Positions 1 through 58,824 of a DNA stretch of 64,000 nucleotides are shown one piece after another. The stretch comes from Amoebidium appalachense (taxonomy: Eukaryota; Protista; Ichthyosporea). Below the pieces are notes generated by a model. It was not told the origin of the DNA and did not search any database. It worked only from the letters and a program-made list of their open reading frames with translations. The stretch is from NCBI GenBank assembly GCA_963693365.1, contig CAVNZM010000005.1, forward strand, positions 10,315,728 to 10,379,727. The letters are read 5' to 3'. The translations under genes were made by a program, and so were the position numbers. Position 1 is the first letter of the stretch. Each line of letters opens with the position of its first letter.

Positions 1-83
1 AAAGCAGCATGATACACAGATACTTGGTTTATTTCGTGCATGAACTTCTCCCGGAAGCACATCAAACAACTTCCAAGCCCTCC

Positions 84-190
84 CATGCTAACACCATCCC
101 ATCAAACCAACCCCCATCTAGCTCATGCTAACACCATCCCATCAAACCAACCCCCATCTAGCTCATGCTAACACCACCCCATCAACCCCC
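84..190 (+). repeat. 40-bp tandem repeat, about 2.6 copies
   Basis: CATGCTAACACCATCCCATCAAACCAACCCCCATCTAGCT starts at 84, 124 and 164 (third copy partial). Confidence 0.9.
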
Positions 191-337
191 CCCCCCCCCC
201 TCAGCCCTCACTCAAGCTCCGCAACAACCTTCATCACCCAATCATACCCCTCCCGCAGGCGCTGCTCAATCATCTCCATGTCCTGAACAAAATAGTGGTT
301 GCCCTCATCCCACCAAACGGGAACCTCCACCGCCCAC

Positions 338-1066
338 TCATCGATCGATGCCGCAAGAGCAGAGTCTCTCTCCTCCGCCCCCCACACATCGTCCGAGTCG
401 ATACGTTTCCCGGGAGGGTACTTCGGATCCCTCTGCACTCAACAGAAATATCTCGCACTGCCGGAGCACGTTGCCACTTGCAAGCTCCCCGGGTGTGAGT
501 GCAAAGGGGACGAGGTTTGGACGGGGAGAACCGGGGGGGCGGGGAACGTAGGCGAACTGGCCGGGCCCCTCCCCGCCCTGGCGGCGGTGGACACGTTCGG
601 CAATCCGATGGCGCAGCGCTTGCTTGTTGCGCTCCACAGCATCCTCCGCCGACCAAAAACCCACATACCCGCCCTTAACCGCCCGAGCCGCCTCTGCCAT
701 GTCGTGGAGCGCCTGCGCCACCGCCCGTGCTTTAGCCGCGCCCACGACGTTGCGCCCAGGCTGCTGCAGGTACTGGCGCAGACCCGGCACGACGGACTGT
801 GCAGCCACGGCGCACCCCCCGAACTCCGTGACCAACGGACGCACCTTGTCGCGCGCGGGCCCGACGGCGTTCTCTGCGGCGACGAGGGCAAGGATGGCGT
901 CCTGGCAGTGGTTTAATTCCCTGCACACCTTCACATGCGAGGGGATCTGGTCGCTGTGCATGTCAGCGACACAAGCGCGGCACTTGACCATGTATTTGTC
1001 CTTGGTGTTCTTAGTGAAAAGGTGATCGGTCAGCCATTTGTAGCTGCGCTTGCCTACTTGTTCCAT
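338..1066 (-). CDS. Hypothetical protein with N-terminal zinc-finger-like motif; C-terminus may continue in the 208-438 frame
   Basis: ATG at 1066 (MEQVGKRSYKWLTDHLF...VKCRAC...SHVKVC). CxxC...HxxxC spacing is BED/C2HC-like. Confidence 0.55.
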   Translation of the reverse strand: MEQVGKRSYKWLTDHLFTKNTKDKYMVKCRACVADMHSDQIPSHVKVCRELNHCQDAILALVAAENAVGPARDKVRPLVTEFGGCAVAAQSVVPGLRQYLQQPGRNVVGAAKARAVAQALHDMAEAARAVKGGYVGFWSAEDAVERNKQALRHRIAERVHRRQGGEGPGQFAYVPRPPGSPRPNLVPFALTPGELASGNVLRQCEIFLLSAEGSEVPSRETYRLGRCVGGGGERLCSCGIDR

Positions 1067-1690
1067 GGTGTGTGTGTGTAGAAATGGGGGTGCAAAGCGA
1101 AAAATCAGTAAAAGGCGACCTAACAAGCGACTTCAAAGCCTTTGATGTTGACACTACAGAAGGTGTGTGAAAGTGACACCCTATCAGCTGTGCCGTGCCC
1201 TTAGAAGCCAATTCCCAACTGATGCTGACGAAATGATATCCAGTCACGCGTTTGATTGGGAGAATGCTTTCAGATCCAGATCACCAAACTGCACGATTGG
1301 CTGCTGGGGATTGGATCACACCCAATTCAAGATCCAATCAGATCCTGCGAAGAGCAGGCAATGCCAGTGCTTCAAGATTTTTCAATGACAGCTGATGCCT
1401 TTTTCTCTTCTATCCCTTAGAACCAAACATAAGAATAAAATCAAACGTTTTATACCCAATTTCATATTCAAGATAGTTTTATAAACAATTTGGTCACATT
1501 TCAAACAGAAATCACGAAGAAATAGTCCTATCAACGATTACAAACAGATTCTGAAACCTTGGTCAGGATCTTGAACGCTTTCGACCAATCAGATCGAATA
1601 GCGGGGTAGCCAACTGCGCGCTGCTTTGGCCGTTTATTGGCACACCTGGCGCTGCTTTGGAACGAAGTTGTGGTTCCGGGTTGCCTGTTC

Positions 1691-1780
1691 CGGGGCCTGG
1701 GGGGGGCGCCTGTGGCACACAGACCCGTGAGACCACTGTGCCTTCCGTGCCTCGCGTGCCCCTCATGCCCCCAGGCCCCG
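1691..1780 (+). repeat. Intergenic hairpin element, copy 1
   Basis: CGGGGCCTGGGGG...CCCCCAGGCCCCG arms around a GTGCCT-repeat core, similar to the copies at about 3887 and 4876. Confidence 0.75.
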
Positions 1781-2042
1781 CTCCTAGGAAAAAGCAATCG
1801 GCGAACAGGGTCCACCCCCGGCACCTGTTCTCCAAGGATCCGGGAGACATGGTTGGGGATGCCATGGTGTTCTCTTGGGTTCCGGGAGACATGGGGGGGA
1901 CCGGCGATGCTGTTCTCTAGCAAAATGCGGGCCAAACGTTCATGGGCACTGCCGTGTTCTCTCTGGTTTGTGGAGAAATCGGTGGACTGGGTAGGGGGGC
2001 AGGAGAACAGGGTGGTGAACGCGCAGGTGGATATGGGCCGGG

Positions 2043-2909
2043 TTGTTGCCGTGTGACGTAAAGGTCGATTTTGATAGTTTGTGGTACTTTATCTGTCGGT
2101 TCAACACCGTGATGTCTCAACTCAGCGAAGGGGCGGTTGTGCGCTGCCTCCACCTGGTGCGCACGTTTTTGGATAACGATAAGAGCAGCGCTTTGTTCAT
2201 GCAGGGATACACAACGCACCACCTAGTGTTATACATCAAGCACCTGATGGAATTGGAAATAAACGAAAAGGTCCCAGTCGAACACATTGAGAGGCTGATC
2301 TCCTGCCCCGATGAAATGTCCGAACACACGCGCTCATCGAAGAAACTGAAAAACGTCGTTATAGCAGTTCGCGAGCTGTTCCCCACACCGTGGGTTTGGA
2401 AGGGGATTGATCCAGGCACGTTTACGGTGGAGCTCGCTAGGGAGGTCCATCGCAAGGTCATGGACGGGCTGCTCGATAGCGCTGGACGGTATCGGGTGCG
2501 CTTTGCGCTTCCCGCAGGCTGCAGTCATCAGTACCTTGCACCGTTCAAGATCGAAGAGGCTCTCAAGCGCCTGTTCGAAAGGACACGCATTGAACTCCAA
2601 GGCTGCAATGACGTTCTCGGTGCCATACAGGTCACTGCCCGTTTCCTCGGGGAGTACCTCTACATCCACCCGTTCAGCAACGGCAACGGGCGCGTCGCCC
2701 GTCTGTTGGTCAGCGTGCTGCTCTCGCCCTATATTGCCGTTCCTCTCTCGTTGTACACAGACCGCAGCTCCCGCGAGCGCTACCACTCGCTGCTGCTGGC
2801 CGCGCAGAGCCAGCCGCCCCCCCACGACTACTCCGAGCTGGCGGCCTTCGTGCTGGACTGCGCAAGGGCAAACCTGGTCTCGGTGTGCAACGCCCTGGAT
2901 TTGGAATGA
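2043..2909 (+). CDS. Fic/Doc domain protein (putative AMPylase)
   Basis: Canonical motif YIHPFSNGNGRVARLL (HPFxxGNGRxxR) with upstream HRKVM...AGRYR. First in-frame ATG is 2112; the true start may lie further 5' across a frameshift at about 2040. Confidence 0.92.
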   Translation: MLPCDVKVDFDSLWYFICRFNTVMSQLSEGAVVRCLHLVRTFLDNDKSSALFMQGYTTHHLVLYIKHLMELEINEKVPVEHIERLISCPDEMSEHTRSSKKLKNVVIAVRELFPTPWVWKGIDPGTFTVELAREVHRKVMDGLLDSAGRYRVRFALPAGCSHQYLAPFKIEEALKRLFERTRIELQGCNDVLGAIQVTARFLGEYLYIHPFSNGNGRVARLLVSVLLSPYIAVPLSLYTDRSSRERYHSLLLAAQSQPPPHDYSELAAFVLDCARANLVSVCNALDLE

Positions 2910-2940
2910 AGCGTCAGCTCTTATCGCGCCCTACATCAAC

Positions 2941-3816
2941 ATGGACACACCCTCCCAAGCCAGGACACGTGTGCGGATCCTGCTGCCCGGGGGCGGCGTC
3001 AAGGGCTGCTTCCAAGTCGGGTTCATGCAGGGGATGCTCGCGTCGGGGCTGTACCAGGTCGACAGGGTGTACGGCACGTCCGTCGGCGCGCTGGTGGCGC
3101 CGTTCGTGGTTGCCGACCGCCTGGACGACCTGGCGCGCGAGCTGGGGACGCTGAAGTGCGTGGAGGACATTGTGGAACCGTGGGGCGGCGCAATGGCGCT
3201 GCTTCCGAAAAGCTGGAGGACGGTTGTGGGGTCATTGCTGTACGGGGCGGCGTACAGCCGCTTCACCCTGCAGGAGCGTGCGGCGGCGCTTCTGGAGGGC
3301 ATCGACGCGGACATCTACACGCGCTGCCACTGCGTCGCCTGGGACTTCCTCAACAAGAAGGAGCGGTGGTTCACAGGGCCCGAGTACCAGGTCGGCATGC
3401 GCGCGTCTTCGGCCCTTCCACTCGCGGTCCCCCCCGTCGAGTACGGCGGCACCGTGTTTCTGGACGGCGGGGTCTCTGAGCTGGTGCCCCTCACCAAGGC
3501 ACTCGAGGATGCCGCAGATGGGTTCGACGGCATCTACGTCACGGTGCTGTGCGACTCGCTGGCGCACTGCCCCGCAGAATCCGTGCCAAAAACGGGCATG
3601 GAGCTCTGCTATGCTCTGCAGCGTGACTCGGGCACCGAGCTGGCGGCCACCGAGTTCGCCAACCTCCGCACCCGCCTCGGAGACCGCCTCGTGGTGGTCG
3701 CTCCGGAGCGGAGGCTGTTTGGTTCGCCCATGGACGTCGACCCCGGGAAGGTCGCGCGGGCGCTTGCGGATGGCCGCACGGCGTTTGCTGCCTGGGCCGC
3801 CGCCGCACGTCAATAA
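2941..3816 (+). CDS. Patatin-like phospholipase
   Basis: LPGGGVKG oxyanion loop, YGTSVGA nucleophile elbow (GxSxG), ASSALP, and FLDGG catalytic Asp. ATG at 2941. Confidence 0.93.
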   Translation: MDTPSQARTRVRILLPGGGVKGCFQVGFMQGMLASGLYQVDRVYGTSVGALVAPFVVADRLDDLARELGTLKCVEDIVEPWGGAMALLPKSWRTVVGSLLYGAAYSRFTLQERAAALLEGIDADIYTRCHCVAWDFLNKKERWFTGPEYQVGMRASSALPLAVPPVEYGGTVFLDGGVSELVPLTKALEDAADGFDGIYVTVLCDSLAHCPAESVPKTGMELCYALQRDSGTELAATEFANLRTRLGDRLVVVAPERRLFGSPMDVDPGKVARALADGRTAFAAWAAAARQ

Positions 3817-3886
3817 ACCCGGGTCCAGTCCATATCTGCCACCCATCCGGGCCTGGGGGGCTGGGGGGGGCTGGGGGGGGGCTGGA

Positions 3887-3979
3887 GGGGGCTGGGAGGG
3901 GCTCCTGTGGCGCACGTGCCACGCGTGCCTCCTGTGCCTCGCGTGCCTCGCGTGCCTCACGCGCCCCCTCCCAGCCCCC
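3887..3979 (+). repeat. Intergenic hairpin element, copy 2
   Basis: GGGGCTGGGAGGGG...CCCCTCCCAGCCCC arms; core GCCACGCGTGCCTCCTGTGCCTCGCGTGCCTC. Confidence 0.8.
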
Positions 3980-4124
3980 CAAGCCCCGCGCAGTGTCTAT
4001 GCAAGTTGTTTGAGACATATTGCAAGACCTGCTTGCTCACTGGCGCCAGGTTTATTGGGTGATGGTCCAATGCACCTTTGCCCCAATGGTGGGGTGGTGG
4101 GGTGGTGGGGGCCTGGGGGCGCTC

Positions 4125-4811
4125 CTAATCCTGAAAGATCCTTGAAGCCCACAGGTAGTAGCAGTCTGACTTGCCACTGGCACCTGTTGGTGGGTGCAGT
4201 GGCCATTTGCAAACTCTAGGTTCGAGCGTGCATTTTGTGTGTCCAAGAATTTTTGTAATGGCCATCCCGAATGCCCGAGTGCTTGGCATAGGAGTTTGGG
4301 CAGCGTTGACGTTGTGCCATTCCTGAAAAAGCTGATACAGCCCGGTTGATGTCACGGCACAACCGTTGTGGATGAATGTGAAATTTTCACACCCGTTTCT
4401 GTGTGACAACAGATCCCTTAGGAATTGCATCTCATTGTTAGCTGATGTGCAGACTGCCACTGGCTTTTCGGCCTCCACATCCAGCGCTGGAAGTGGGCTC
4501 CAAATGAGCTGCAAGGTGTCTGGTTCGATCGTGGCTCTGATGCCCAGGAGCGCCATCGTTTCGATCGCCACTTTCAAGCAATCTAGGGACGCAATATCGA
4601 ACAGATGTACCCGAGGTCGATGGTTCGGACAGTAGGCTTGATAGCACAGGACCTGCCCAACGGCGGATTTCCATTTAGAAGCGCGCTTGACTTCGATGAC
4701 TTCCGTGGCCGTCAGCAGGTCGATCCGTCCTGCGGGCGTGCGTACCTCAATGGTTCCACCTTCGAGCTTGGCCAGCCTATCCCTGACATATGACTCGTCG
4801 TAGGTAGCCAT
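4125..4811 (-). CDS. PD-(D/E)xK-like nuclease domain fused to a D5-type C-terminal winged-helix domain
   Basis: EVRTPAGRIDLLTATEVIEVKRASKWKSAVGQVLCY (D...ExK, GQxxxY). C-terminus FLRDLLSHRNGCENF...LYQLFQEW...STRAFGMAITKILG aligns with the helicase C-terminus. Confidence 0.78.
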   Translation of the reverse strand: MATYDESYVRDRLAKLEGGTIEVRTPAGRIDLLTATEVIEVKRASKWKSAVGQVLCYQAYCPNHRPRVHLFDIASLDCLKVAIETMALLGIRATIEPDTLQLIWSPLPALDVEAEKPVAVCTSANNEMQFLRDLLSHRNGCENFTFIHNGCAVTSTGLYQLFQEWHNVNAAQTPMPSTRAFGMAITKILGHTKCTLEPRVCKWPLHPPTGASGKSDCYYLWASRIFQD

Positions 4812-4875
4812 CACTTACAACACAAGAAAATAAAAATCACCCGCAGTCGATTGTTGGTTGCCAGTGGGTGGCTGG

Positions 4876-4968
4876 GGGTGGCTGGGAGGGGCCTGTGTGC
4901 ACCGGTGCCCCGTCAGCCACGCGTGCCTCCTGTGCCTCGCGTGCCTCACGCGCCCCTCCCAGCCACCC
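4876..4968 (+). repeat. Intergenic hairpin element, copy 3
   Basis: GGGTGGCTGGGAGGGG...CCCCTCCCAGCCACCC arms; same core as copy 2. Confidence 0.8.
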
Positions 4969-4971
4969 GGG

Positions 4972-5268
4972 CTAGTTTCGGGTCCGATTCGGGCTCCCCG
5001 GTTCTTTGGTGTGCTGCTGCATGTGCCGCTTGAGGCTCAAGGCATACCGAAACTGACGCCCGCACCCCGCATGCGCGCACACGTGCCGCAGAATCCCCGC
5101 ATGCCTGTCGCTGTGCGCCGCAAAGTTGCTGTTGCGGGTGGTGGAGTAGCCGCAACCGTCGACTGTGCACCGATACACCTTGTACTCCTTGACCATGACT
5201 GGGCCTAGCTCAGACCTGCACGTGCATGGAAACATTATGTTACTGAAGGAACGGAAAATATTTTCCAT
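4972..5268 (-). CDS. Small protein with two C2H2 zinc fingers
   Basis: YRCTVDGCGYSTTRNSNFAAHSDRH and HVCAHAGCGRQFRYALSLKRHMQQH. ATG at 5268. Confidence 0.85.
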   Translation of the reverse strand: MENIFRSFSNIMFPCTCRSELGPVMVKEYKVYRCTVDGCGYSTTRNSNFAAHSDRHAGILRHVCAHAGCGRQFRYALSLKRHMQQHTKEPGSPNRTRN

Positions 5269-5361
5269 GGTCACGGACTCTGTCACTGCAGGTCGCTGCT
5301 GATTTGCCTGAGGGGCTGATGGTGGGTGACCTGTCTCCCTTGCTCCGCAGGCCCGCACGCA

Positions 5362-5373
5362 GGTATATAAGCA
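5362..5373. promoter_or_regulatory. TATA box in the divergent C2H2/helicase intergenic region
   Basis: GGTATATAAGC lies about 95 bp from each divergent ATG. Confidence 0.45.
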
Positions 5374-5460
5374 CGCACCCGACCGGTTCCGGTCACAGTC
5401 TTGATCTTTGCTTCGAGTGTGACAGGCGACGACGAGAAAATATTTTCTATACAACCTGTA

Positions 5461-6894
5461 ATGCTGGCGACACCTACCTCTAAGCGGCAGCGCGGGGACG
5501 CCGAAGCCATGGTCGCCCGCCGCCTATTCCTGGCTACTAACGACGGACAACCACGCTTTGTGTCTTCAAGTTGCATTGGTCGCTGGGCTGACTTGAACCA
5601 CATTATGCAGTTCCTACAGTCAAAGGTGGCAAGTGTGGTACATGCAAGCAACACGTACATCGTCAAGCTCAGCAGCGGCAGCAAGTCAGTTTTTGAGATC
5701 ATGGGGAAGGACGCAGTCGCTACCAAGTTGGCCTCGATGCAGTTTCTGTACATCACAACAGACAAGAAGGGAAACCCAGTGGAGAATTGGTACAAGGGTG
5801 AGAACTACCTGCGCGAGCCTGTGTGCACGTGGTTTGAGCGTATTGTTTTTGACCCCTCCGATCCCAACTGCACCTCCGAGGACAACCTGTACAACTTCAA
5901 CACGTACAAGGGCATGACCTTTGACCCCATTGACGGGTTCAGAGTGGAGATCGACCGGGTGAGACCAATGCTTTGGCATTTGGAGAGGGTGATGGCAGCT
6001 GACAACCCCGTAATGGGAGATTTCCTCACTACCTGGTGTGCCCACATCATCCAACACCCAGGGACCAAGCCCGACAGTTGTTGTCTGTTTATTTCCAAAC
6101 AGGGAACAGGCAAAGGTGTCTTCTGGACCATATTTTCCAAGCTGCTCGGCGAGCGCCTCGTGGTCACCGTGAACAGCAAGCATCGCTTGGTCGGAAACTT
6201 CAACAACCACTTGGCAGACAGGCTGTTGGTGCTGGTGGATGAAGTCATGTTTGGTGGTGAACATGCAGTCAACAACCAGCTCAAGAACATGATAACCGAT
6301 ACCACCATGGTAATCGAGCGTAAGGGTATTGACTCAATGACCCGCCGGTCTTGCGAACGTTACGTCTTCATGTCAAACGAAGAGTGGCCGCTGCGCGTTG
6401 AGGCAAGCGACCGAAGAAGCGCCTGTTTCGAAGTGTCACCTATGAAAGTCGGTGATTCCGAATACTTCAGCAACCTCAGGGCCCACTTTGACGACAAAAC
6501 TAACCTTGAGCACCTTTTTCATTTCTTCTACCAGCATCGCCCAAACGGAAATCCCGTGGCTTTGTTCCTTCCACCACCCGATTCCACACTCAAGGACGAG
6601 CTAAAAGCCATGTGCCGCGACGACTACGTTACCTTCCTGAAAGATCTTGTGGCCTGTCGGAATGGATGCGAACACATGGGTGTCTCTGATGGAACAGTCA
6701 CCGACTCAGCGAATATGCTGAATTTGTTCAAGGAGTGGTGCGAGAAAAACGGCAAGGACCCCAAAAGAGCAAGCTTGACCATAATGGGCAGAACACTCAA
6801 AAGGGTGTTTGGCGAAAGGGTTTCAGTTCACGTCCCCAACTCCACCCCCACCAAAGGCTACCGGGTAGCTTTTGCCAAGGTCGTAGAACATTAA
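5461..6894 (+). CDS. D5-like / DUF5906 superfamily 3 helicase with C-terminal winged helix and no primase domain
   Basis: Walker A SKQGTGKG, Walker B LVLVDE, LKNMITD...IERKGID, motif C YVFMSN, Arg finger SDRR; upstream FDP...FNTYKG; C-terminal LFKEWCEKNG...MGRTLKRVFG. Confidence 0.92.
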   Translation: MLATPTSKRQRGDAEAMVARRLFLATNDGQPRFVSSSCIGRWADLNHIMQFLQSKVASVVHASNTYIVKLSSGSKSVFEIMGKDAVATKLASMQFLYITTDKKGNPVENWYKGENYLREPVCTWFERIVFDPSDPNCTSEDNLYNFNTYKGMTFDPIDGFRVEIDRVRPMLWHLERVMAADNPVMGDFLTTWCAHIIQHPGTKPDSCCLFISKQGTGKGVFWTIFSKLLGERLVVTVNSKHRLVGNFNNHLADRLLVLVDEVMFGGEHAVNNQLKNMITDTTMVIERKGIDSMTRRSCERYVFMSNEEWPLRVEASDRRSACFEVSPMKVGDSEYFSNLRAHFDDKTNLEHLFHFFYQHRPNGNPVALFLPPPDSTLKDELKAMCRDDYVTFLKDLVACRNGCEHMGVSDGTVTDSANMLNLFKEWCEKNGKDPKRASLTIMGRTLKRVFGERVSVHVPNSTPTKGYRVAFAKVVEH

Positions 6895-6911
6895 ACACCA
6901 TGACGGTGCTA

Positions 6912-7175
6912 ATAGACACATAGACAGCTAGACACTTGACCCCGTACCTGTGGTAGGATGCCCCATGGACACCATTTGTATAGTAGGAATCGGATATTTT
7001 TACTCTTCCCCCCCGACCGCCAATCCTGCTGTCTATGTGTCTATCTGTCTATGAACTCCTTATTTCATATATGTATTAACTATATTTATATATAAAAATG
7101 TATAGACACATACTAGTCACAAGCATTCCTCTAGACAGATCCGCTAGACAGGTCCATAGACACCTTCTAGACACC
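6912..7175. promoter_or_regulatory. Origin-like iteron module A (TAGACA)
   Basis: TAGACA at 6913, 6921, 6929; inverted TGTCTA at 7030, 7038, 7046; AT-rich 7060-7102; TAGACA at 7103, 7132, 7145, 7157, 7168. Confidence 0.7.
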
Positions 7176-7275
7176 ATCGAAAAATGTCAACCGGGCAACC
7201 AACTCGTGTGAAGTCCGCCTGGTGCGGCCCAGGAATAAAAATTACAAACTTACCCCCCCCCCCACCCCCCCCCCC

Positions 7276-7530
7276 CTACCACCTGTACACCAGCACGCCG
7301 GCCAGCAGCACGAGCAGCACCATGCATGCAAGCGCTATGCCCCTCCACATCGAAGCGCTCTTGAGCTGTGCATCATGGTCGTCCAATGAAGTGCCCATGT
7401 AGAGCATGAAGCGCGTGTTGTTGTCGATGGTCAGGTGGTACTCGTGCGGGTCGGCGGCAATGTCATCCCTGCGCACCCACGAGTTACTCGGGTTGTCAAA
7501 TCTCAGGTTTGCAATGTTCGGAGAAGTCAT
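7276..7530 (-). CDS. Small protein with a C-terminal transmembrane helix
   Basis: MTSPNIANLRFDNP...WRGIALACMVLLVLLAGVLVYRW. Confidence 0.65.
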   Translation of the reverse strand: MTSPNIANLRFDNPSNSWVRRDDIAADPHEYHLTIDNNTRFMLYMGTSLDDHDAQLKSASMWRGIALACMVLLVLLAGVLVYRW

Positions 7531-7664
7531 ACCTTCCGAAGAGATAGTTTGGAGCGCCCCCTCCCCAGCAACTCGGGGAGCACACACAGAGATTATGCAT
7601 CGCAGTGCTAATGGAACCTAAAAACCGCTGGGACGTAGGGCGCGCCAAGACGGAGGACGCACTG

Positions 7665-8375
7665 CTACAATGATCTTTGGCAACCTTGTTTTTCTTTGTC
7701 ATATATATGGTCAATTTGATAGCTGTTCGATCTTGTGTCCAGAGCGGTGGTTGTAAAAGGCAACAACAACAACCCACTGCAAGTGTCACAAAGGGCACGC
7801 TGTGGGTGCATTAACACAAACAACAAGACCCCCCCCCCCCCCCTGAGCGCCAGCACGCGGCAAGCAGCACGAGCAGCACCATGCATGCAAGCGCTACGGT
7901 CCACAACACAGGTGTGGAAGAGGAAGTGGCAATTTTTATTTACTCCTCGTGTCCAGCACGGCCGCGCTTCTCGGTGGGCGCCGAAGTGTCCTCGGGCGAC
8001 CGCGCGCGCTTCTTCTCGGGGGGGCTTCTTGTCGAGGCGCTCCTCCTCGGAGCTCAAGATGCAAATGGGGCGCTCCTCGGCGGGGTACTCCTCGGCGGAG
8101 GACTCCTCGGGGTCGCTGAGGTTCTTCAGGGTCCTCCATGTCATACGGTACAGGCTCACGCTGGCCTTGAGGTGCAGATACTTCTTGCGCAGCACCTTGT
8201 ACTTGCGCCGCAGCTCCAGCTCGCTGGCGCGCGCACGGTCGAGGTCACGCTTTGCCTCCTCGTACAGGTACTGCTGCCATTCGGGAGGCCACGCGGCAAA
8301 TGACCCTGGGGGCCGTGGACTGGCAGGCTGCTCGGCTGGGTCAGGGCCGGCCTTTGGAGATGGTGGACCGGACAT
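7665..8375 (-). CDS. Coiled-coil hypothetical protein (true end probably about 7936 after a homopolymer frameshift)
   Basis: WPPEWQQYLYEEAKRDLDRARASELELRRKYKVLRKKYLHLK. The frame after the G7 run at about 8018 gives RRSARGRPRTLRRPPRSAAVLDTRSK* followed by AATAAA. Confidence 0.6.
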   Translation of the reverse strand: MSGPPSPKAGPDPAEQPASPRPPGSFAAWPPEWQQYLYEEAKRDLDRARASELELRRKYKVLRKKYLHLKASVSLYRMTWRTLKNLSDPEESSAEEYPAEERPICILSSEEERLDKKPPREEARAVARGHFGAHREARPCWTRGVNKNCHFLFHTCVVDRSACMHGAARAACRVLALRGGGGVLLFVLMHPQRALCDTCSGLLLLPFTTTALDTRSNSYQIDHIYDKEKQGCQRSL

Positions 8376-8735
8376 TGTCGGTGAAGAGAAACAGGAAGAG
8401 TGAAAAGTGTCAGCATAGCGCTGAGTCGCGGCTTTAATTGCCTGCCAGGCTGACAGCTATCGCGTTTTGATTGGATGGACATGATATATCTGATCGAGTC
8501 AAAATTGACCAATTACAAGAGACGATCGGAATTTATATGTACTATCCAATCGCGACTGACCATTCAGCGCGTGAGACGTAATCTATCAATAAGATGATCT
8601 CCAATCTGATCGCGCCGTGGGCATGCCATACCAGTGCTTTACTGACCGGAGAGCCACATATAAAAGCGCTAGGTCGAGGCTGATCCCTGTCACTTTCACT
8701 ATCCTCTCATTCGGGCGCGCGCTCTCACTACAGAA

Positions 8736-10106
8736 ATGTTCCACACAAGTTTTCGTCCACGCACTGGAATTGACAATCCAGTTAAACGGTGCGGGCTTTT
8801 ACCATTCGCCGTCCGCCTCCATTACTCGGATGCCAAGGATCAGTATGACGCCATTGTCTATGCGCTGAACGACAAATTTCAGCTCGAAAAGACCGTTGTC
8901 AGGGCCCACATGCTGGACATTGGAAGAGACGGCGACCTCCGCATCTTCGACACAAAGGAGCTCTTTGATGGTTTCCGTTCAGCCTTTGAGAATGAGATGT
9001 CCTTTGTGCCGACACGGTTGCAAACCCTCCTGGGGCAGGAGGGGCTTGAGGAGGCTGCGCGACACCTCCTGCTTAAGCATAGGCACTCTCTCGCATTCCC
9101 GTTCTACACCGCCTTCCAGCGCTACGTCCTAGGGGCGGCGGACTATGACGCGTTTTATGAGGGCAAAATCTGCGACGGGGTTGGCAGCTTTTTCCTGCTG
9201 ACGGTGAGGGCGCTGTGCAAGCGGTCCGGTCTGACAGCCCGTCCCATCGCATACTTCAGCCAACAGCCAGTCGATTCCCCCTTGGGTGTGTTTACATCCA
9301 GCGTTGGGGAAGATGCCATGGACGACGTTGTGTTCTGTGAATTGGCTGAACGTGCCATCCAGCACTTTGTGGACAAGTTACCGTCCACGTCGTGTCTCGC
9401 CAAGGAGCCCCCTACCCACCCCCCCGAGCCGATAGATTCTTTGTCCAAACACCAGATCGTCGTCCACACCTTCGATGCCCACTTGCATTTGCAATCGGAC
9501 CCCGTCTGCGACCTGATGCTGAAAGTTCTCCACGACAGAGACCTCCGTGTCTTTTCCAACAGGGAGCGCTACATGAAATGGGACGCGGTCCTGGCGGAGG
9601 AGGTGCGTATTATAGTTGAACGGACACAGAGGGGGGACCCAACGGTGACGAGGGCCGACCGCAATAAGGCTGTGTACTTCACGGGGGTCAGGCACTTCGC
9701 GGTCTTCCAGCGCTACGTGGTGCGGGAGCCGGACTACACTGCCGCGCACGCAGGCAACCTCAGCAGGGGAGCCGAAACCGTCATGAAGATGGCGATGCGG
9801 GTACTGTGCGAGTCTGCCGGCCTCACCCCATGCACCATGGACGAAATGGCTCGGCGGCGTGCGAGGATGGCAAGCCCTAACTATTGGCTCGCGCTGGACA
9901 TCGAGCAACTGTGTCTGATTGACTGGTGCAACCGGGCCATCAAGGACTTCGTCGATCAGCTGCCGTCGTCGGTGTGTCTGGCCTGCGGCGCTACCCGTTG
10001 CACCAAGAAGTGCTCAGCCTGCAGGCGCGCATACTACTGCAATGAGGCCTGCCAGATTACGCATTGGCATGAGCACAGGGAGGAATGCCAGAGTCAGGAC
10101 CATTAG
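8736..10106 (+). CDS. MYND zinc-finger protein with an internally duplicated domain of about 210 aa
   Basis: C-terminal CLACG...KKCSACRRAYYCNEACQITHWHEHREEC. Repeats FQRYVL..DY...RALCKRSGLT...RAIQHFVDKLPSTSCLA and FQRYVV..DY...RVLCESAGLT...RAIKDFVDQLPSSVCLA. TATA CATATAAAAG at about 8658. Confidence 0.9.
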   Translation: MFHTSFRPRTGIDNPVKRCGLLPFAVRLHYSDAKDQYDAIVYALNDKFQLEKTVVRAHMLDIGRDGDLRIFDTKELFDGFRSAFENEMSFVPTRLQTLLGQEGLEEAARHLLLKHRHSLAFPFYTAFQRYVLGAADYDAFYEGKICDGVGSFFLLTVRALCKRSGLTARPIAYFSQQPVDSPLGVFTSSVGEDAMDDVVFCELAERAIQHFVDKLPSTSCLAKEPPTHPPEPIDSLSKHQIVVHTFDAHLHLQSDPVCDLMLKVLHDRDLRVFSNRERYMKWDAVLAEEVRIIVERTQRGDPTVTRADRNKAVYFTGVRHFAVFQRYVVREPDYTAAHAGNLSRGAETVMKMAMRVLCESAGLTPCTMDEMARRRARMASPNYWLALDIEQLCLIDWCNRAIKDFVDQLPSSVCLACGATRCTKKCSACRRAYYCNEACQITHWHEHREECQSQDH

Positions 10107-10207
10107 AGAATAGAAAACTCATGGGTTGGACTCGTACATTGGTGTGATCTCGCAGGACCATTAGAGGATAGAAAACTCATGGGTTGGACTCGTACATTGG
10201 TGTGATC
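10095..10207 (+). repeat. 58-bp tandem duplication covering the MYND stop codon and 3' UTR
   Basis: CAGGACCATTAGAG(A/G)ATAGAAAACTCATGGGTTGGACTCGTACATTGGTGTGATC at 10095 and 10153. Confidence 0.9.
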
Positions 10208-10892
10208 CTGGGTTTTGTTATGCACATTGTTTTGTATTAAAAAACTTCTATGATAAAATGTGGGGATTTTTGACATCAGGCAAAATAAAATGTGGGGATT
10301 TTTCACATCAGAAAAATAAACATAAACATCAGTGCACCTTGTGGCGCTTTACTCGCACGCTCTGTCGGAGCACCAGTCTCCGGTATTTCGGCATGAACTC
10401 ATCGGCATACACGTACTTTTTTATACGCCTCTGACCTCTCTTTTTCGACCGACCTCTTCGGTGTGACATGCCCCTCCCCCGGAAAATGTCCGCATCCGAC
10501 TCCAAAAGCACCCTGTCTAGTGAAACCACTTTCTCCGCTTGCACCCAGCCGCGCACAGGTTGCTGGTCCACGCACCCTCCTCGAGCTCGAGGGACACCTT
10601 GCGCCACCCGGATTCTGCGCGCTTGATCTCGCACGCCACCACAATGTCTCCCGGTCGCACACCTGCGGTCCACATGCTTGTGCAACAGCGCACGCTCAGC
10701 ACCTCACACACCGTGTCGGGCCCACGTACACACACGCCGAAACACGCAAGCGCGCACTCGTGGTCATGCAGCGCCTCGAGAACTGGCACCTTGCGAATGA
10801 GTGTGCGCCGACGCAGGCGGGGACTCTGGAGGGTATAAAAGCGTGTGTCTGACACGGGGAGCTGCCAGTCTGAATCTGCACCAGAACCGACC

Positions 10893-11411
10893 ATGGCTTT
10901 TGAGCAGGACCTGAAGCTATTTGTCAATCGGCTGTCGCTGCTTGTATCCAGCATGACGTTCGACTCGAACGGCGCCGGCAGGGTGGCGAGACGGCCGCTA
11001 CAGCTCCACGCAAGACTCGGCAAGGGCGACACGATGCTGTCGGACACGATGCTGCCGCTGCAGTCGGTGGAAACGTCGAACAGGACTGGACTCAACCACC
11101 TGGTGTTTTCGACGTGTCCACTGGAGGGGGCCGGGGATGCGGTGACCATCGACCTGGATTGGGGCAAGTCGTTTCGGCTGACCTGGGAGCGCTGGGACAC
11201 CACGCTGTCGCTGCTGCCACCGAGGGATCCGACGGAGGAGGAGGGCATGAGCGAGGGACGAGCTGTCCCCATGGAGGCAAAGAGAAAACGAACAACCCTT
11301 CTGCGAATCGACTTTTTGAAGGACTTCCTTTGGCATGACATGGGGTGCGACATTCTGTCGCTGCAGTTATATGAATCAGTACAGAAAAATAGGCGGCAGT
11401 GTAGAGAATAA
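10893..11411 (+). CDS. Hypothetical protein
   Basis: ATG in ACCATGG context 60 bp after GGTATAAAAG; 172-aa ORF with GC3 bias; no recognised motif. Confidence 0.6.
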   Translation: MAFEQDLKLFVNRLSLLVSSMTFDSNGAGRVARRPLQLHARLGKGDTMLSDTMLPLQSVETSNRTGLNHLVFSTCPLEGAGDAVTIDLDWGKSFRLTWERWDTTLSLLPPRDPTEEEGMSEGRAVPMEAKRKRTTLLRIDFLKDFLWHDMGCDILSLQLYESVQKNRRQCRE

Positions 11412-11613
11412 TGCAGGTATCTCGCAGTGCGTGTGTGTGTGCGACTGCGCCCCGGATGGTGCAGCACGCGTATATAAGCAGGGCCACACCCAACGTGTCG
11501 TCCGAGCGCATGCTTGTGTGTGCGCACACAAATTTGTAAAAAAGCCAACGTTTTCCTTTGCCCTGAATTCAAGTTACTCTGAGCATAAAATTAATGGTTT
11601 TTTATTTGTTTCA

Positions 11614-11878
11614 TGAGTAACAATATCTTACTCAGGGTACTCATTCTGAGTAACACAGACAAGTTTCCCCCACTAGATGTTACTCACCCAAATATGGTAA
11701 AGGTTTCCTTTTTAGGTATAAAAATATGCAATTGTCATATAGTGAGTAGGATGAGTAGAATGAGTACGTACTCATCTACTGTGGGCTACGGGTATACCTA
11801 AATCTCAATCCAAAAGGAAATTGGAACACCCGGGGGGAGACCAGATGAGTAGGTACTCAAGCTACTCATCCTACTCAC
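11614..11878. promoter_or_regulatory. Origin-like iteron module B (TGAGTA)
   Basis: Scattered TGAGTA/TACTCA at 11614-11686, AT-rich 11705-11740, then an inverted repeat of about 35 bp (11742-11776 vs 11844-11878), each arm holding three 9-bp-period iterons plus one inverted copy. Confidence 0.7.
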
Positions 11879-11887
11879 CCCATCACT

Positions 11888-12031
11888 GCCTATAGGCATG
11901 CCCCGTGTGCAGGGCACTGATTTCTGCCCTCTTCTGGTTGGTGCCAAGAGGCAGTGCCCTACACATGTGGTGTCTAAACAGCCTATAGGCATGCTCTGTG
12001 TGCAGGGCACTGATTTCTACCCTCTTCTGGT
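11888..12031 (-). repeat. About 1.5 inverted copies of the 92-bp palindromic unit
   Basis: Reverse complement of the 16824-17706 array unit, with a few substitutions. Confidence 0.92.
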
Positions 12032-12081
12032 ATTCTGAAATCACTCGCAAGTGTTATCCCTCATGATTGTATCAATCCGTT

Positions 12082-12426
12082 TCATGGAGTCTTAGCGGAC
12101 TGGCCCAGCCGTATGAGACAGGCCCGTAGAAAGTCCTTTTGCTTCTTCAGCTTGTCGTTTTCCAGCTGCAGCTCTTGGTTCTCCACCACCAAATTCTTGT
12201 TCTCTTCGCACACCTTGTTGCGCTCCTCTTGCAGGCCCTTGATCACCTCCCGCTGGTTCTTGTTCATTGTGCGCAGCGCGTCGTTGTCCTTGTCCATGTC
12301 GTTGTTCAACTCCCTCAGCTGCTGGATCAGCCCGTGCAGCCCCTCGTTGGCCTCCTTCAGCATCTTGTTGGTCTCTTGCAGCTGCTTGGTGTGTGCATCT
12401 TGGCGCTGTGTATCTGTTTCATCCAT
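12082..12426 (-). CDS. Small, almost entirely coiled-coil protein
   Basis: 114 aa with heptad pattern LQETNKMLKEANEGL...ENKNLVVENQELQLENDKLKKQKDFL. Confidence 0.75.
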   Translation of the reverse strand: MDETDTQRQDAHTKQLQETNKMLKEANEGLHGLIQQLRELNNDMDKDNDALRTMNKNQREVIKGLQEERNKVCEENKNLVVENQELQLENDKLKKQKDFLRACLIRLGQSAKTP

Positions 12427-12481
12427 TGTGTCGTTTGCAGCCGGTTGGGCAGGAGGTGTTTAGTTTTTCTATCTTTCTATC

Positions 12482-12700
12482 CACGAAGCAAAGCAGTGTG
12501 AACAAAAAAAAACGTCCCTCTTATTTTTACGAAGCAAAAGTGTGACCCAAAAAAACCGTCCCTCTTACACAGTGCAAAATAAAGCAAAATCCTATGATGC
12601 GCAAACACACCGTGAACTAAAAAAACTCGCCACTGATTATTTACACGAAGTAAAGCAGTGTGAACAAAAAAAAGCGCCCCTTACACAATGCAAAATAAAA
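12482..12700 (+). repeat. Three imperfect repeats of about 45 bp upstream of the coiled-coil gene
   Basis: ACGAAG(C/T)AAAGCAGTGTGAACAAAAAAAA..CG(T/C)CCC(T)CTTA at about 12482, 12529 and 12644. Confidence 0.7.
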
Positions 12701-13321
12701 CACACACACACACACACACACACCAAGCCATTTGTATCCAGCTCGGACCCCTTTTTGTGCGCACACTTCTGGTTGGTGTATAAGTATTGGATCCACGTGA
12801 GCGCGAGTTTCCTAAGTGCTGCTCAAAAAGTGACATATGTGATTGTGTACTTTTCCTGACCAATTTTTGTATCCCTGATAGACAGAATAATGCTCGTAAT
12901 TGTTGGGAAGCATATTCGTGTTTTTTTAGGAGTTGCTACATCAAAATACATTGTGTTCAAACACTGATGGCCAAGTTGCAAAGATCGGATTACAATCCAA
13001 TCTGTCAAAATGACAATTCTCAAGTCAAAACATGCTCTTGTTGATCCAATCAGAATTCATCAATCAGTCAGCAGATTTGGTTGAGCCCCAACTTATCGGA
13101 TACACCAAGATGCCTAAATGACAATTAGCCAATCAGATGTTCACGCGATCTCTAGATCCAATCAAGCGTCGCGGCTGGGGTATATCCAACCAATCTAATG
13201 CAATAAAGCATCTGATGCCAAAGCCGGGCACGGCATATAAAAGCCCATACTCTCTTCAATCCACACACCTTTTCCATGTTAGCTAGCTTCTCCCTTGGCA
13301 CACAACGTACATCCAACTGTC

Positions 13322-14056
13322 ATGAAAATGAGTTCTAAAGACATCAAAGATCTAGAAAGGCGCGCTGAAAAAATAGAGACAAGACTCAAGACTTTGGAGG
13401 AGGATGCAAAGGCCCTGCGGGACACCCAGGCCCGTTTCGCGCGCGCCCTTGCTAGGCACGCCCGCATGGCTTTAAGCAAGCGCACCACTACAGCAGCAAC
13501 CGTGGCACCCCCAGCGCTGACCGTGGCACCCCCAGCGCTGACCGTGGCACCCCCTGTCCTGGCAGCGGCACCTGCACTTCGTGCTGGCGAGCATGGCAGC
13601 TCCTATCCCGTGGACTTGGCCCCCCAGCCCCTGCAGCGCTCACGTTTGCACATCACACAGGGGTCCAAGACACGGGAGAAACCACGAAGACAGCAGAAGA
13701 GGACACGAGAGGAAGTCAGAAGCTCTGGGTCGGAGGAGGAGCACCATTCTCCAGTGCCTCCTTGGTTCAACTGGAAGACCTTCACACAGGGGTCCAAGAC
13801 ACGGGAGAAACCACGAAGACAGCAGAAGAGGACACGAGAGGAAGTCAAAAGCTCTGGGTCGGAGGTACAGGAGGAAGTGCCTCCTTGGTTCAAGACCTTG
13901 CTATGGGGACCTGAGGAGTACTCGTCTTCTGAGGAGCACTCGTCTTCCGAGTCCAAGACCTTGACACGGGGACAGCAGAAAAGGGCACGAGCCAGTGAAG
14001 CCAGCAGCTCTGGGGCGTCTTCCGAGTCTTCAGACGGAGATATCAACTGGCCTTGA
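13322..14056 (+). CDS. Coiled-coil plus repetitive basic/Ser-rich hypothetical protein
   Basis: N-terminal coiled coil, TVAPPAL x3, and a duplicated 43-aa block TQGSKTREKPRRQQKRTREEV.SSGSE...VPPWF. TATA GGCATATAAAAGC at about 13232. Confidence 0.75.
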   Translation: MKMSSKDIKDLERRAEKIETRLKTLEEDAKALRDTQARFARALARHARMALSKRTTTAATVAPPALTVAPPALTVAPPVLAAAPALRAGEHGSSYPVDLAPQPLQRSRLHITQGSKTREKPRRQQKRTREEVRSSGSEEEHHSPVPPWFNWKTFTQGSKTREKPRRQQKRTREEVKSSGSEVQEEVPPWFKTLLWGPEEYSSSEEHSSSESKTLTRGQQKRARASEASSSGASSESSDGDINWP

Positions 14057-14114
14057 CACGGTGAAAAAAGGGGCCGCTATTAGAGAGTAGCCTCAGGCTA
14101 TTCTAGTGCTTGTG

Positions 14115-14925
14115 TGCAGGTGTACTTAACATTGAGTGTACTTAGGGTGGGGCTGTGCAGACGTGTACTTAAAGGGTGGGGCTGTGCAGACGTGTACTTA
14201 GGATGGTGCAGACGTGTACTTAAAGGGTGGGGCTGTGCAGACGTGTACTTAAAGGGTGGGGCTGTGCAGACGTGTACTTAGGGCTGTGCAGAGGTGTACT
14301 TAGGGTGGTGCAGAGGTGTACTTAGGGTGGTGCAGAGGTGTACTTAGGGTGGTGCAGACGTGTACTTAGGGTGGTGCAGAGGTGTACTTAGGGTGGTGCA
14401 GAGGTGTACTTAGGGCTGTGCAGAGGTGTACTTAGGGTGGTGCAGAGGTGTACTTAGGGTGGTGCAGAGGTGTACTTAGGGTGGTGCAGACGTGTACTTA
14501 GGGTGGTGCAGAGGTGTACTTAGGGTGGTGCAGACGTGTACTTAGGGTGGGGCTGTGCACCACAGTGTACTTAGGGTGGTGCAGACGTGTACTTAGGGTG
14601 GGGCTGTGCACCACAGTGTACTTAGGGTGGTGCAGACGTGTACTTAGGGTGGTGCAGAGTGTACTTAGGGTGGTGCAGAGGTGTACTTAGGGCTGTGCAG
14701 AGGTGTACTTAGGGTGGTGCAGAGGTGTACTTAGGGTGGTGCAGAGGTGTACTTAGGGTGGTGCAGACGTGTACTTAGGGTGGTGCAGAGGTGTACTTAG
14801 GGTGGTGCAGACGTGTACTTAGGGTGGGGCTGTGCACCACAGTGTACTTAGGGTGGTGCAGACGTGTACTTAGGGTGGGGCTGTGCACCACAGTGTACTT
14901 AGGGTGGTGCAGACGTGTACTTAGG
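14115..14925 (+). repeat. 22-bp G-rich minisatellite containing TTAGGG
   Basis: Unit GTGTACTTAGGGTGGTGCAGA(G/C), with variants GTGTACTTAGGGCTGTGCAGAG and GTGTACTTAGGGTGGGGCTGTGCACCACA; more than 30 units. Confidence 0.95.
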
Positions 14926-15330
14926 TGGGTGTCTTGTGGTGAAAGTAAAGTTTATGGCATACAGGCAGATGTGTGCTTTAAGCCTTAGGGAACTGTGGGC
15001 AGACATGTCAACACTTGGGCCTATGGGTAGACGTGTACACACTTAGTGTATTTGTTTGTGTCTCTCATGGTTATTTTATAGCATGAAGCACTGCAAAAAA
15101 TGGTGTATGTTTCCGTGGTCCACGTACACAGAATCCTTTAATATGAACACAAGTGATTGTATAGAAAAAGAGTACGTACGTACATGATAGTCTAGTCAGA
15201 TTACAAAGAACAAATCAACTTGGACCGAGTATATTCAAATACAAACTAAAAGAGAAAAGAAACAAATAAATCAAGACCGATCAATTCAAATACAAATCAA
15301 AAGAGAATGCCACTTAGTCGACCAATCAAA

Positions 15331-16530
15331 TCAGTACATCTCATGCTCATACTGGTCAAACTCTTCCTGGTCAAGATCAATGAGGGGAATTTCTTCAGTT
15401 TGTTTATGTTTGGGTTCAGGTTTGCGGTCATACACGACCGACTCACGATCAGACGCAGATTCGTCATCTGTCATATCATCGAGTACCTGATTTGCCCGTC
15501 GTTTGAGCCGCTTGGGGTTGAATGCTTCATCTGAGTCCCAATCACATTGATCATGGACGCGTTTGGCGGGTGAGGCAGGTGAAGAGACAGACTCATTACC
15601 ACCTGTGTATGCCTTCAAGTTCTTCTCCCGTCGCAGAATCTTCCTTCGGATGCTTTTTATGGTGTTTTGGGCTGCACACACAGCAGCAATGGCCAGGCCC
15701 TCCGCCATTTCATCTTCAGCCGCCTTTGCCTCTTTGACACGCTCTCGAGCATTCTGGAGCTCCCCCCTCACACTAGTTAGCTGTGCATCGAGGTCCATCG
15801 TATGGTCATGCAACGAAGTCTCAGGTGTTTTGGTGTGCTTGGGCCTGGGCTTAGCGGCAGGGGTGGTCTTGGCAGGAGTGGTCTTGGTGGTAGGGGTGGT
15901 CTTGGCAGGAGTGGTCTTGGTGGTAGGGGTGGTCTTGGCAGGAGTGGTCTTGGTGGTAGGGGTGGTCTTGGCAGGAGTGGTCTTGGCGGCAGGGGTGGGG
16001 GCAGTCACAGGGGCGGTCTTTGCGACAGGGGTGGGGGCAGTCACAGGGGCGGTCTTTGCGACAGGGGTGGGGGCAGTCACAGGGGCGGTCTTTGCGACAG
16101 GGGTGGGGGCAGTCACAGGGGTGGTCTTTGCGGCAGGGGGGGGGGCAGTCACAGTGGTGGTGTTGGCGGCAGGGGTGGGGTCAGCAGTCACAGTGGTGGT
16201 GTTGGCGGCAATGGTAGTCTTGCGAGGGCCACTGAAAATGTAGTTTTCATAGGCCACCTGGCCATCCCGACGGGGTGCTGCAGCCCGTTGCAGGCTGGCA
16301 AGCTCGGCCTGCAGGGTCTTGATCTGCTCTTCGGCTGCCCTCAGTCGTGCCTCTACATCAGAGGGCTGGGGTTGGGGGGGTCGGGGGGTACGCGCAGCAT
16401 TCTCATTGGTCACTTGACTGCGGAGGCTGATGAGGTCGGTGTGCAGGGCCGTTAAGCGAGACGAATGGTCCGTGTACAGAAAATCAAAGCGCTTCTGCAG
16501 CTGTTGAAGCTCCTCTTTCAAAGAATCCAT
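15331..16530 (-). CDS. Coiled coil / Thr-Pro-Ala repeat / coiled-coil hypothetical protein
   Basis: 399-aa ORF with KTAPVTAPTPVA and KTTPAKTTPTT repeats and an acidic C-terminus. TATA GGCATATAAAAGC on the minus strand at about 16625-16637. Confidence 0.8.
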   Translation of the reverse strand: MDSLKEELQQLQKRFDFLYTDHSSRLTALHTDLISLRSQVTNENAARTPRPPQPQPSDVEARLRAAEEQIKTLQAELASLQRAAAPRRDGQVAYENYIFSGPRKTTIAANTTTVTADPTPAANTTTVTAPPPAAKTTPVTAPTPVAKTAPVTAPTPVAKTAPVTAPTPVAKTAPVTAPTPAAKTTPAKTTPTTKTTPAKTTPTTKTTPAKTTPTTKTTPAKTTPAAKPRPKHTKTPETSLHDHTMDLDAQLTSVRGELQNARERVKEAKAAEDEMAEGLAIAAVCAAQNTIKSIRRKILRREKNLKAYTGGNESVSSPASPAKRVHDQCDWDSDEAFNPKRLKRRANQVLDDMTDDESASDRESVVYDRKPEPKHKQTEEIPLIDLDQEEFDQYEHEMY

Positions 16531-16823
16531 GTTTCGTGTGAGTGTTTGAAAAACAAGTTTGTTGTGTGTCGCCTTTTACTATTGAGTGTCAGTGTTGAAA
16601 TGAGTGAATGTGACCGTGTGTGCTGCTTTTATATGCCACGGTACAAAGCAGCTTACAGCAATGGTGCCAAGGCTCAATGGGATAGATCTGACCAATCAAC
16701 GGTCATTGTCACTCAAACGGCTTTGATGATTGGCAAAGTATCACGTCTAAGCTTGATGAAAACAAACCCGTGGCTGCTAACCATTGGCTGTGTATAGATC
16801 TAACCAAAAAAGGAAGGCACAAC

Positions 16824-17706: not shown

Positions 17707-17771
17707 TTGTGGCTTCTGCCTTTATCACCCACACACCCCCACGTGCCAACATACACTATCCTCCCCGTGAG

Positions 17772-51246: not shown

Positions 51247-58824
<7,578 letters not shown>

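Follow-up and report, generated by a model that had tools for sequence, protein, structure and literature searches.

A likely iteron origin directly downstream of a stand-alone SF3 helicase gene in the genome of Amoebidium appalachense

Does a helicase gene that lies in a eukaryotic genome carry its own replication origin directly behind it? The question is raised by a stretch of 64,000 nucleotides from the ichthyosporean Amoebidium appalachense (GenBank assembly GCA_963693365.1, contig CAVNZM010000005.1, positions 10,315,728 to 10,379,727 of the forward strand), called the window below, in which the gene of a superfamily 3 (SF3) helicase is followed by direct and inverted copies of the hexamer TAGACA. 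In the initial annotation, the two were taken for a rep-ori pair like those of phage P4 and the pathogenicity islands of Staphylococcus aureus (SaPIs). The rep-ori design was supported by a survey of related helicases and by a second array in the window, but the helicase is not an orthologue of P4 alpha or SaPI Rep: it belongs to the DUF5906/NrS-1 family and is without a primase. The suggestion of a satellite-like or helper-dependent element, of circular forms or of ongoing replication received no support. The TAGACA array is likely to be the helicase's own replication origin, and we consider it probable that the locus combines a self-loading SF3 helicase with its cognate iteron origin in the SaPI/P4 design.

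The helicase gene and the TAGACA repeats

The features at the centre of the locus are the following:

5364..5371, plus strand: TATA-like box, recognized from the sequence, about 90 bp ahead of the helicase ATG
5461..6894, plus strand: stand-alone SF3 helicase of the DUF5906/NrS-1 family, 477 amino acids, stop codon TAA at 6892-6894
6913..6934, plus strand: likely iteron set 1, three TAGACA starting at 6913, 6921 and 6929, 8-bp period
6935..7029: spacer separating the facing triplets, 95 bp, 47% AT
7030..7051, minus strand: likely iteron set 2, three inverted TAGACA at 7030, 7038 and 7046, 8-bp period
7052..7102: AT-rich tract, candidate DNA-unwinding element, 51 bp, 84% AT
7103..7173, plus strand: five more TAGACA at 7103, 7132, 7145, 7157 and 7168, spaced by 29, 13, 12 and 11 bp
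7234: AATAAA beyond the array

The helicase matches Pfam DUF5906 with E 3.6e-22 (79.6 bits, the gathering cut-off being 27.6). Its Walker A, Walker B, motif C and arginine finger are all intact, and residues G215, G217, K218, E261, K288, N306, R318 and R319 are invariant across 22 relatives. The best solved structure by sequence is that of the NrS-1 helicase (6K9C, E 2.6e-27 over profile positions 176-469), which was also ranked nearest by Foldseek, followed by the PrimPol of African swine fever virus, poxvirus D5/E5 and SaPI5 PriRep at E 0.004-0.05. Residues 410-452 weakly match Pox_D5 (E 0.013, below the cut-off), and the AlphaFold2 model, which is mediocre overall (predicted local distance difference test, pLDDT, 66, with a poor ATPase core), shows helices and a beta-hairpin at 416-476 with a local pLDDT of about 69-88. 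A C-terminal winged helix is predicted for the protein. No primase domain was detected in it with Pfam or PHROG, nor was a TOPRIM primase in the stretch ahead of the ATPase, which is only about 200 amino acids long.

Six relatives are 44-60% identical to the window helicase and 469-479 amino acids long. In a FastTree analysis of 94 sequences, whose deeper nodes are weakly supported, it falls within a clade of 16 (support 0.998), and 13 of the 15 other members have 460-503 amino acids; the window helicase thus stands in a clade of primase-less helicases. The rest of the family consists mostly of primase or polymerase fusions, found in phages, virophages, Polinton-like viruses and giant viruses. 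Within the stand-alone clade, P0022 alone is long: it carries an N-terminal extension (residues 1-200) without any Pfam match, the motifs of which we take, by eye, to be reminiscent of an HUH endonuclease. A second, diverged copy of the window helicase was found in the public runs X4 and X7, with 38 differences over 5460-5763.

The first description of the array, with three TAGACA, a 95-bp spacer, three inverted copies, an AT tract and five more copies, proved correct: 11 exact copies are present within 6913-7173, in the order three forward, spacer, three inverted, AT tract and five forward. The first begins 19 bases past the helicase stop, leaving 18 bases in between. The core of the AT tract (7061-7102, 42 bp) is 90% AT, and an extra copy with one mismatch occurs at 7114. 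The dinucleotides separating the copies vary while the hexamer itself is kept, and a perfect 17-nt inverted repeat is formed by 6912-6928 and 7028-7044. In dinucleotide shuffles of 6865-7294, 11 copies of any hexamer, counted in both orientations, were never obtained (0/2000, maximum 6). Chance or a microsatellite was rejected as the source of the array. An assembly artefact is ruled out as well, since the junction between helicase and array was found in contigs of three of the four public runs with 0-1 differences (6735-7157 in X4 and X7, 6293-7230 in X18). The AATAAA at 7234 lies past the array, which is therefore probably contained in the 3' untranslated region of the helicase transcript.

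By analogy with SaPI Rep and P4 alpha, the predicted C-terminal winged helix would bind the TAGACA repeats, probably via its wing, two helicase hexamers would load themselves on the repeat sets that face each other, and melting of the AT tract would follow. Since no primase or polymerase was found nearby, priming would come in trans, either from the host nucleus or from a partner element. In the case of papillomavirus E1 and simian virus 40 (SV40) T antigen, priming is supplied by the host nucleus. The module most likely derives from the replicase of a Polinton-like virus, a virophage or a giant virus that lost its primase.

Arrays at related loci and other explanations of the repeats

The initial annotation called for a search for arrays downstream of homologous helicases. 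Loci were collected from metagenomes, IMG/VR and bacterial genomes, and the segment from -30 to +400 relative to the helicase stop was scored as the maximum number of copies of one hexamer (with at least 2 G/C) having at least two copies on each strand, six or more being positive. Arrays were found as expected: 63 of the 118 helicase loci were positive, versus 4 of 369 windows after other open reading frames (ORFs) of the same loci. When only the first locus per 60%-identity cluster was counted, the figures were 16/46 and 0/144, respectively (Fisher p 1e-11). Windows of the same size tiled elsewhere along the helicase loci were positive in 0-4 of 37-46 cases, and the highest counts were those of windows overlapping the region downstream of the helicase. 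Positive loci were present both among the eukaryotic-virus-like loci (18/50; 7/23 clusters), including Polinton-like and virophage-like contigs, and among the phage and bacterial loci (45/68; 14/23 clusters), a division that we assigned from tree position and marker genes (Pox_A32 in L004, L005, L235 and L266, MCP_V20 in L263 and AEP_C962R in L240). Arrays seen by eye but missed by the strict score (L001, L002, L004, L005 and L240) were counted as negative.

The hexamer varies with the lineage (GTATAG, GTGGAG, GAGGGT, TGGAGG, GTTACG, TGTGCA and others). Three loci, L241 (GTGGAG), L258 (GAGGGT) and L252 (ATGGGG), match the layout of the window array almost exactly, with a forward set, a spacer of about 100 bp, an inverted set and an AT tract, and many relatives carry 5-7 copies per side at mixed spacing. 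Of 26 near-identical helicase pairs, 20 had the hexamer in common, while none of the 317 most distant pairs did; L270 and L310, in which the repeats may be coding, were left out of this comparison but kept in the locus and cluster counts. The initial annotation looked to covariation of the hexamer with recognition-helix residues of the winged helix as a check. In SaPI5 PriRep, the iteron is read by the wing beta-hairpin and not by the recognition helix (10.64898/2026.10.17.759575; this and the other publications cited by identifier are drawn on for their accessible portions), so that any covariation would be expected in the wing. Downstream arrays are thus common, though not universal, among the DUF5906 helicase loci, and a family-wide coupling of arrays with lineage-specific hexamers to the 3' end of DUF5906 helicase genes is shown. 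At L117 (6278-6700), the helicase of a giant-virus bin is followed by a tandemly duplicated unit of about 170 bp with inverted G-rich repeats and AT tracts.

The window holds a second array:

11614..11877, minus strand: orphan array of 13 TGAGTA (7 on the minus strand, 6 on the plus strand)

Followed along the minus strand, the copies begin right behind a TGA at 11885-11883, first as a triplet at 9-bp period; past a spacer comes an inverted triplet, and this is followed by a 75%-AT tract and further copies. None of 2000 shuffles reached 13 copies. No helicase gene lies ahead of it in the window, and a 92-bp repeat begins there instead. In X18, one contig, with a depth of 203 versus 25 for the window helicase, connects position 11885, in opposite orientation, with a helicase-like stretch that matches the window helicase as far as 6413. 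The matched part covers residues 254-318 by our estimate, from Walker B to the arginine finger, and the X18 bin depth of 31.3 at 6401-6800 is consistent with the aligned part ending at 6413. We infer that the TGAGTA array may be owned by a paralogous, more abundant helicase gene ending at the TGA at 11885. The rep-ori reading is supported because arrays follow homologous helicases and because the TGAGTA array appears to be tied to a paralogous one.

The 92-bp unit occurs in about 1.5 copies at 11888-12030 and, inverted, in 9.6 copies at 16824-17707; between these lie three orphan ORFs and a 22/29-bp tandem array (14136-14929), and the whole of 11888-17707 has a very high contig depth. Judging from this arrangement, 11888-17707 looks like an inserted element with inverted ends built of repeats, and it appears to have displaced the gene once present ahead of the TGAGTA array.

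The repeats could instead be protein-binding sites for the control or termination of transcription, or form a 3'-end hairpin, without any origin, an explanation that we regard as improbable. They might be bound by the winged helix of the helicase (autoregulation), by the neighbouring protein combining a nuclease and a winged helix, or by the C2H2 protein. In favour of control sites, TAGACA or TGTCTA triplets occur between many genes, shortly ahead of start codons, in L028, L030, L031, L044, L075, L094 and L096; the RNA of 6895-7200 folds better than 100 of 100 shuffles (z -2.8); and the array, which precedes the AATAAA, probably belongs to a 3' untranslated region. However, only the 4 of 369 windows mentioned above were positive after other genes of the helicase loci, and the same layout recurs with other hexamers in phages and bacterial prophages. 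As for a hairpin, the stem closes a 99-nt loop, and the AT tract and the five further copies add nothing to it. Contigs of about 17-29 kb resembling eukaryotic viruses (L028, L030, L031, L033, L044, L075, L090, L091, L094 and L096) carry TGTCTA/TAGACA triplets with AT tracts in many intergenic regions, besides the one following the helicase.

It is also very improbable that an origin is present but is recognised, in the way suggested for the archaeal plasmid pRN1, by its shape as a large stem-loop or cruciform and not through the iteron sequence. pRN1 requires a stem-loop of about 100 nt (21-nt stem, 58-nt loop) just past its primase-SF3-winged-helix gene (PMC4234260), and perfect 17-nt arms surround 99 nt here. 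Against this, the hexamer is conserved while the dinucleotides between its copies vary, the additional TAGACA copies past the AT tract stand unpaired outside the stem, and the 5-7 copies per side of many relatives have mixed spacing.

TAGACA arrays also occur in other viruses. The exact triplet at 8-bp period was found in 98 IMG/VR stretches, 80 of them with flanks, and among these 80 loci, 37 showed two or more inverted copies no further than 200 bp away, while a primase-helicase-type gene lay at most 1 kb ahead in 18; for a control triplet of the same composition, ATCAGA, both counts were 0/58, a difference that favours the origin reading. The 18 helicase-adjacent loci come from three families only: 14 prophage-type loci (phrog_21086/35358), L033 and L091 (phrog_1156), and L069 and L073 (DUF5906), in which the triplet lies 30 bp past the stop and has no inverted set. 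In the prophage family comprising L017, L024, L026, L029, L041, L048, L049, L057, L060, L061, L068 and L082, a symmetric 12-copy TAGACA array sits between a P-loop protein of about 620 amino acids (phrog_21086/35358, without any Pfam match) and a probable terminase, while in a phage group consisting of L020-L022, L042, L056, L064, L066, L067, L081 and L104 the array is close to terminase-like and early genes and no helicase lies within 3 kb of it. Five phage records with TAGACA arrays gave no match to phrog_35358, PF05272 or phrog_1156. In a motif scan of four records, G013 and G018 each showed a long P-loop ATPase, by eye a primase-helicase, and G020 showed one resembling DUF5906, but in no case does it adjoin the TAGACA array; no such long P-loop ATPase was seen in G024 (20 of 24 kb scanned).

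The least credible explanation is that the array serves as a site of recombination or packaging or as a transposition end (bound by an integrase, terminase or nuclease) and adjoins the helicase incidentally: it draws on the 14 prophage-type loci whose TAGACA array has the helicase on one side and, on the other, a Walker-A gene, probably a terminase (without Pfam or PHROG match), on the group L020-L022, L042, L064 and L067, in which the array lies by terminase-like or early genes far from a helicase, and on the proposal that repeats beside Polinton-like-virus replicases are recombination substrates (PMC11296320), but no recombinase, terminase or capsid gene was found among the window ORFs scanned, contigs of three runs cross the array into both flanks with no joint there among those listed, and the constant neighbour across families is the helicase and not a packaging gene.

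Several points weigh against the preferred reading, in which the array is the origin of the helicase. No array was found by the strict score in 55 of the 118 loci or in 25 of the 46 clusters, and 16 of the 23 eukaryotic-virus-like clusters are negative, among them the virophage-capsid locus L263. The family test covers relatives about 22-31% identical to the window helicase, the closest ones (P0001-P0006, P0016-P0025) standing outside it, and the sharing of hexamers is confounded by kinship, since the identity of the winged helix is not separable from the overall relatedness of the helicases. As a single-protein query, the window helicase had no match in viral contigs. The link to the paralogue consists of one contig from one run, with 80% likeness and the letters between its two ends unseen. 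Lastly, 62 of the 80 TAGACA-triplet loci have no helicase stop inside 1 kb, the contigs of L033 and L091 bear TAGACA arrays after several non-helicase genes too, and in the group L020-L022, L042, L064 and L067 the arrays are near terminase-like or early genes and far from the helicase; TAGACA arrays can therefore, as far as their placement indicates, act away from the gene or serve other ends.

How replication starts in Polinton-like viruses, virophages and their kin without a protein-primed polymerase is an open question, for which terminal repeats are proposed in the literature accessible to us. The present data provide an explicit candidate for the cis element, within about 300 bp past the stop of the DUF5906 helicase gene, with a lineage-specific hexamer that can be read from the sequence, and TAGACA and TGAGTA make up a natural specificity pair in one genome. 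Should the stand-alone helicase work with the primase of the host, its counterparts would be papillomavirus E1 and SV40 T antigen, from which it would differ in the origin-binding domain, and it would offer a compact orthogonal replicon for eukaryotic cells.

Neighbouring genes and genomic setting

Intronless genes accompanied by TATA and CCAAT motifs are densely clustered between 1 and about 12 kb, where microsatellites are few, in contrast with the host genes past 20 kb, which are rich in introns and microsatellites. The cluster, which continues past the left edge of the window, contains Fic, patatin, nuclease-like/winged-helix chimera, C2H2, helicase, MYND and orphan genes. The neighbours of the helicase are the following:

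2112-2909, plus strand: Fic-domain gene, intronless (Pfam)
about 2941-3816, plus strand: patatin gene (Pfam)
4125..4811, minus strand: gene of a 228-amino-acid chimera, with an N-terminal nuclease-like domain and a C-terminal domain from a helicase of the same clade
4972..5268, minus strand: two-finger C2H2 zinc-finger gene, divergent from the helicase (Pfam zf-C2H2, E 2.3e-08)
8736..10106, plus strand: MYND-finger gene, intronless, 456 amino acids (Pfam)

The C-terminal part of the 228-amino-acid protein is 51% identical over 105 amino acids to the C-terminus of helicase P0019 (E 1e-33), versus 29% in the case of the neighbouring helicase, so that a nuclease-like domain has acquired the winged helix of a helicase. 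The N-terminal part, 58% identical to P0014 and P0015, is presumably of the PD-(D/E)XK type, judging from a motif that no profile confirmed; the whole protein has no Pfam or PHROG match, its structure model has a pLDDT of 38, and a hit to NucS_C (0.79) is a weak lead only. From its composition, it is a candidate origin-targeted nuclease or resolvase.

No match to primase, polymerase, integrase, A32 ATPase or capsid families was found with Pfam, from which divergent capsids often escape, among 13 + 76 ORFs, the set of 76 covering 1-27 kb and 59-64 kb. No recombinase or terminase gene was present among the ORFs scanned, no circular joint was seen among the joints listed for 1-12000 (contigs only), and no homologue of the MYND protein was found. 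In X4, the contig depth is 237-411 for the helicase with its array and 1434-13981 for 1-5200; in X7, the corresponding values are 62-105 and 230-1798, all of them being summed contig depths and not copy numbers. The Fic and patatin region (2112..3816) lies much above the helicase, while the MYND gene is as low. This contrast suggests that most of the neighbours are repeated families and that the window helicase is a rare module.

A broader picture, which we put forward tentatively and consider rather unlikely, is that of a class of eukaryotic nuclear replicons without capsid or primase, in which the stand-alone, self-loading helicase would fire an iteron origin of bacterial style with the help of the host primase and amplify clusters of cargo genes; paralogues with different iterons (TAGACA, TGAGTA) would behave like plasmid incompatibility groups, and the nuclease with the captured winged helix would cut or resolve the origins.

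Other features of the region are as follows. A G/C-rich palindromic repeat with 9-bp units of the CGTGCCTCG type lies between genes of the cluster (1692-1780, 3849-3986 and 4865-4970), often after stop codons. Of the differences between X20 and window positions 1-12000, nearly all are C>T or G>A changes (398 and 302, respectively), and several loose ends have retained CG; X20 looks like a cytosine-converted library, and there are hints of CpG methylation of the gene cluster. Methylated clusters of intron-poor genes are described in one protist (PMC11244446), a resemblance in kind only. At 51235-58824, there is a host gene for a ubiquitin C-terminal hydrolase (Peptidase_C12), the final exon of which is very long and acidic/lysine-rich.

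Comparison with known systems

Like SaPI Rep1 and PriRep5, the window helicase combines an SF3 helicase with a C-terminal winged helix, which is predicted here. The SaPI origin and the likely one here are alike too, with 6-12 penta- or hexanucleotide iterons directly past the gene, opposed around an AT-rich region, within about 300 bp; in the SaPI ori, which follows rep without a gap, iterons of opposing orientation flank a stretch rich in AT (PMC9371898). With at least two iterons on each side of the AT tract and opposed orientation as the measure, the window array has three inverted copies before the tract and five forward copies after it. A SaPI-type primase upstream of or fused to rep was not found, the upstream neighbours being the C2H2 and nuclease-winged-helix genes. 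The differences extend further: SaPI5 PriRep is only a weak Foldseek match to the window helicase (E 0.02), no primase or integrase was detected in the window, and the setting is a eukaryotic genome with TATA and AATAAA signals.

A TOPRIM primase is part of P4 alpha, whereas no N-terminal TOPRIM was found in the window helicase. The P4 origin is not known to lie directly downstream of alpha, and crr is needed. The likeness is that the winged-helix domain of P4 alpha binds the origin repeats, unwinding coming next (PMC4234260). The locus is probably not a member of the SaPIs or of the P4 group, no primase, polymerase, integrase or capsid gene having been detected among the ORFs scanned.

The closest solved structure is the NrS-1 helicase (6K9C), with which the window helicase shares the DUF5906 domain; according to the accessible part of PMC9371898, ori recognition by the C-terminal domain of NrS-1 had not been addressed. 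The same helicase family includes TVpol-S3H and AEP-SF3, which are replicases of Polinton-like viruses and virophages, and helicase-only forms are reported in mavirus-type virophages (PMC3671162). Inverted repeats near the primase-helicases of Polinton-like viruses have been proposed as origins (PMC11296320), and so have mobile modules in which a replicase lies close to endonucleases. Replicases that are mobile and enclosed by repeats are described in 10.64898/2026.10.13.758929, where a figure bears the label 'small repeat arrays'. The proposed Polinton-like and virophage origins are, in the portions available, terminal or about 300-bp inverted repeats and not hexamer arrays after the gene, and the word 'iteron' is absent from those of PMC11296320 and 10.64898/2026.10.13.758929. 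Of the hallmarks of these viruses, capsid, A32 ATPase and integrase were not detected by Pfam, the left end of the element lying outside the window. In the literature searched, in which few subscription papers were covered, no description was found of an iteron origin behind the DUF5906 helicase gene of a eukaryotic virus or genome.

ORF904 of pRN1 likewise joins SF3 and winged-helix domains and has an essential inverted-repeat element about 50-150 bp past the gene, but it differs in having a primase domain and no iteron structure (PMC4234260). A stem of the pRN1 type can form in the window array, yet the hexamer recurs outside it. The design is thus already known from SaPIs, P4 and pRN1 and has been described so far mainly in bacterial and archaeal mobile elements; judged by these likenesses, the Amoebidium module probably works like a SaPI rep-ori pair while standing outside that family.

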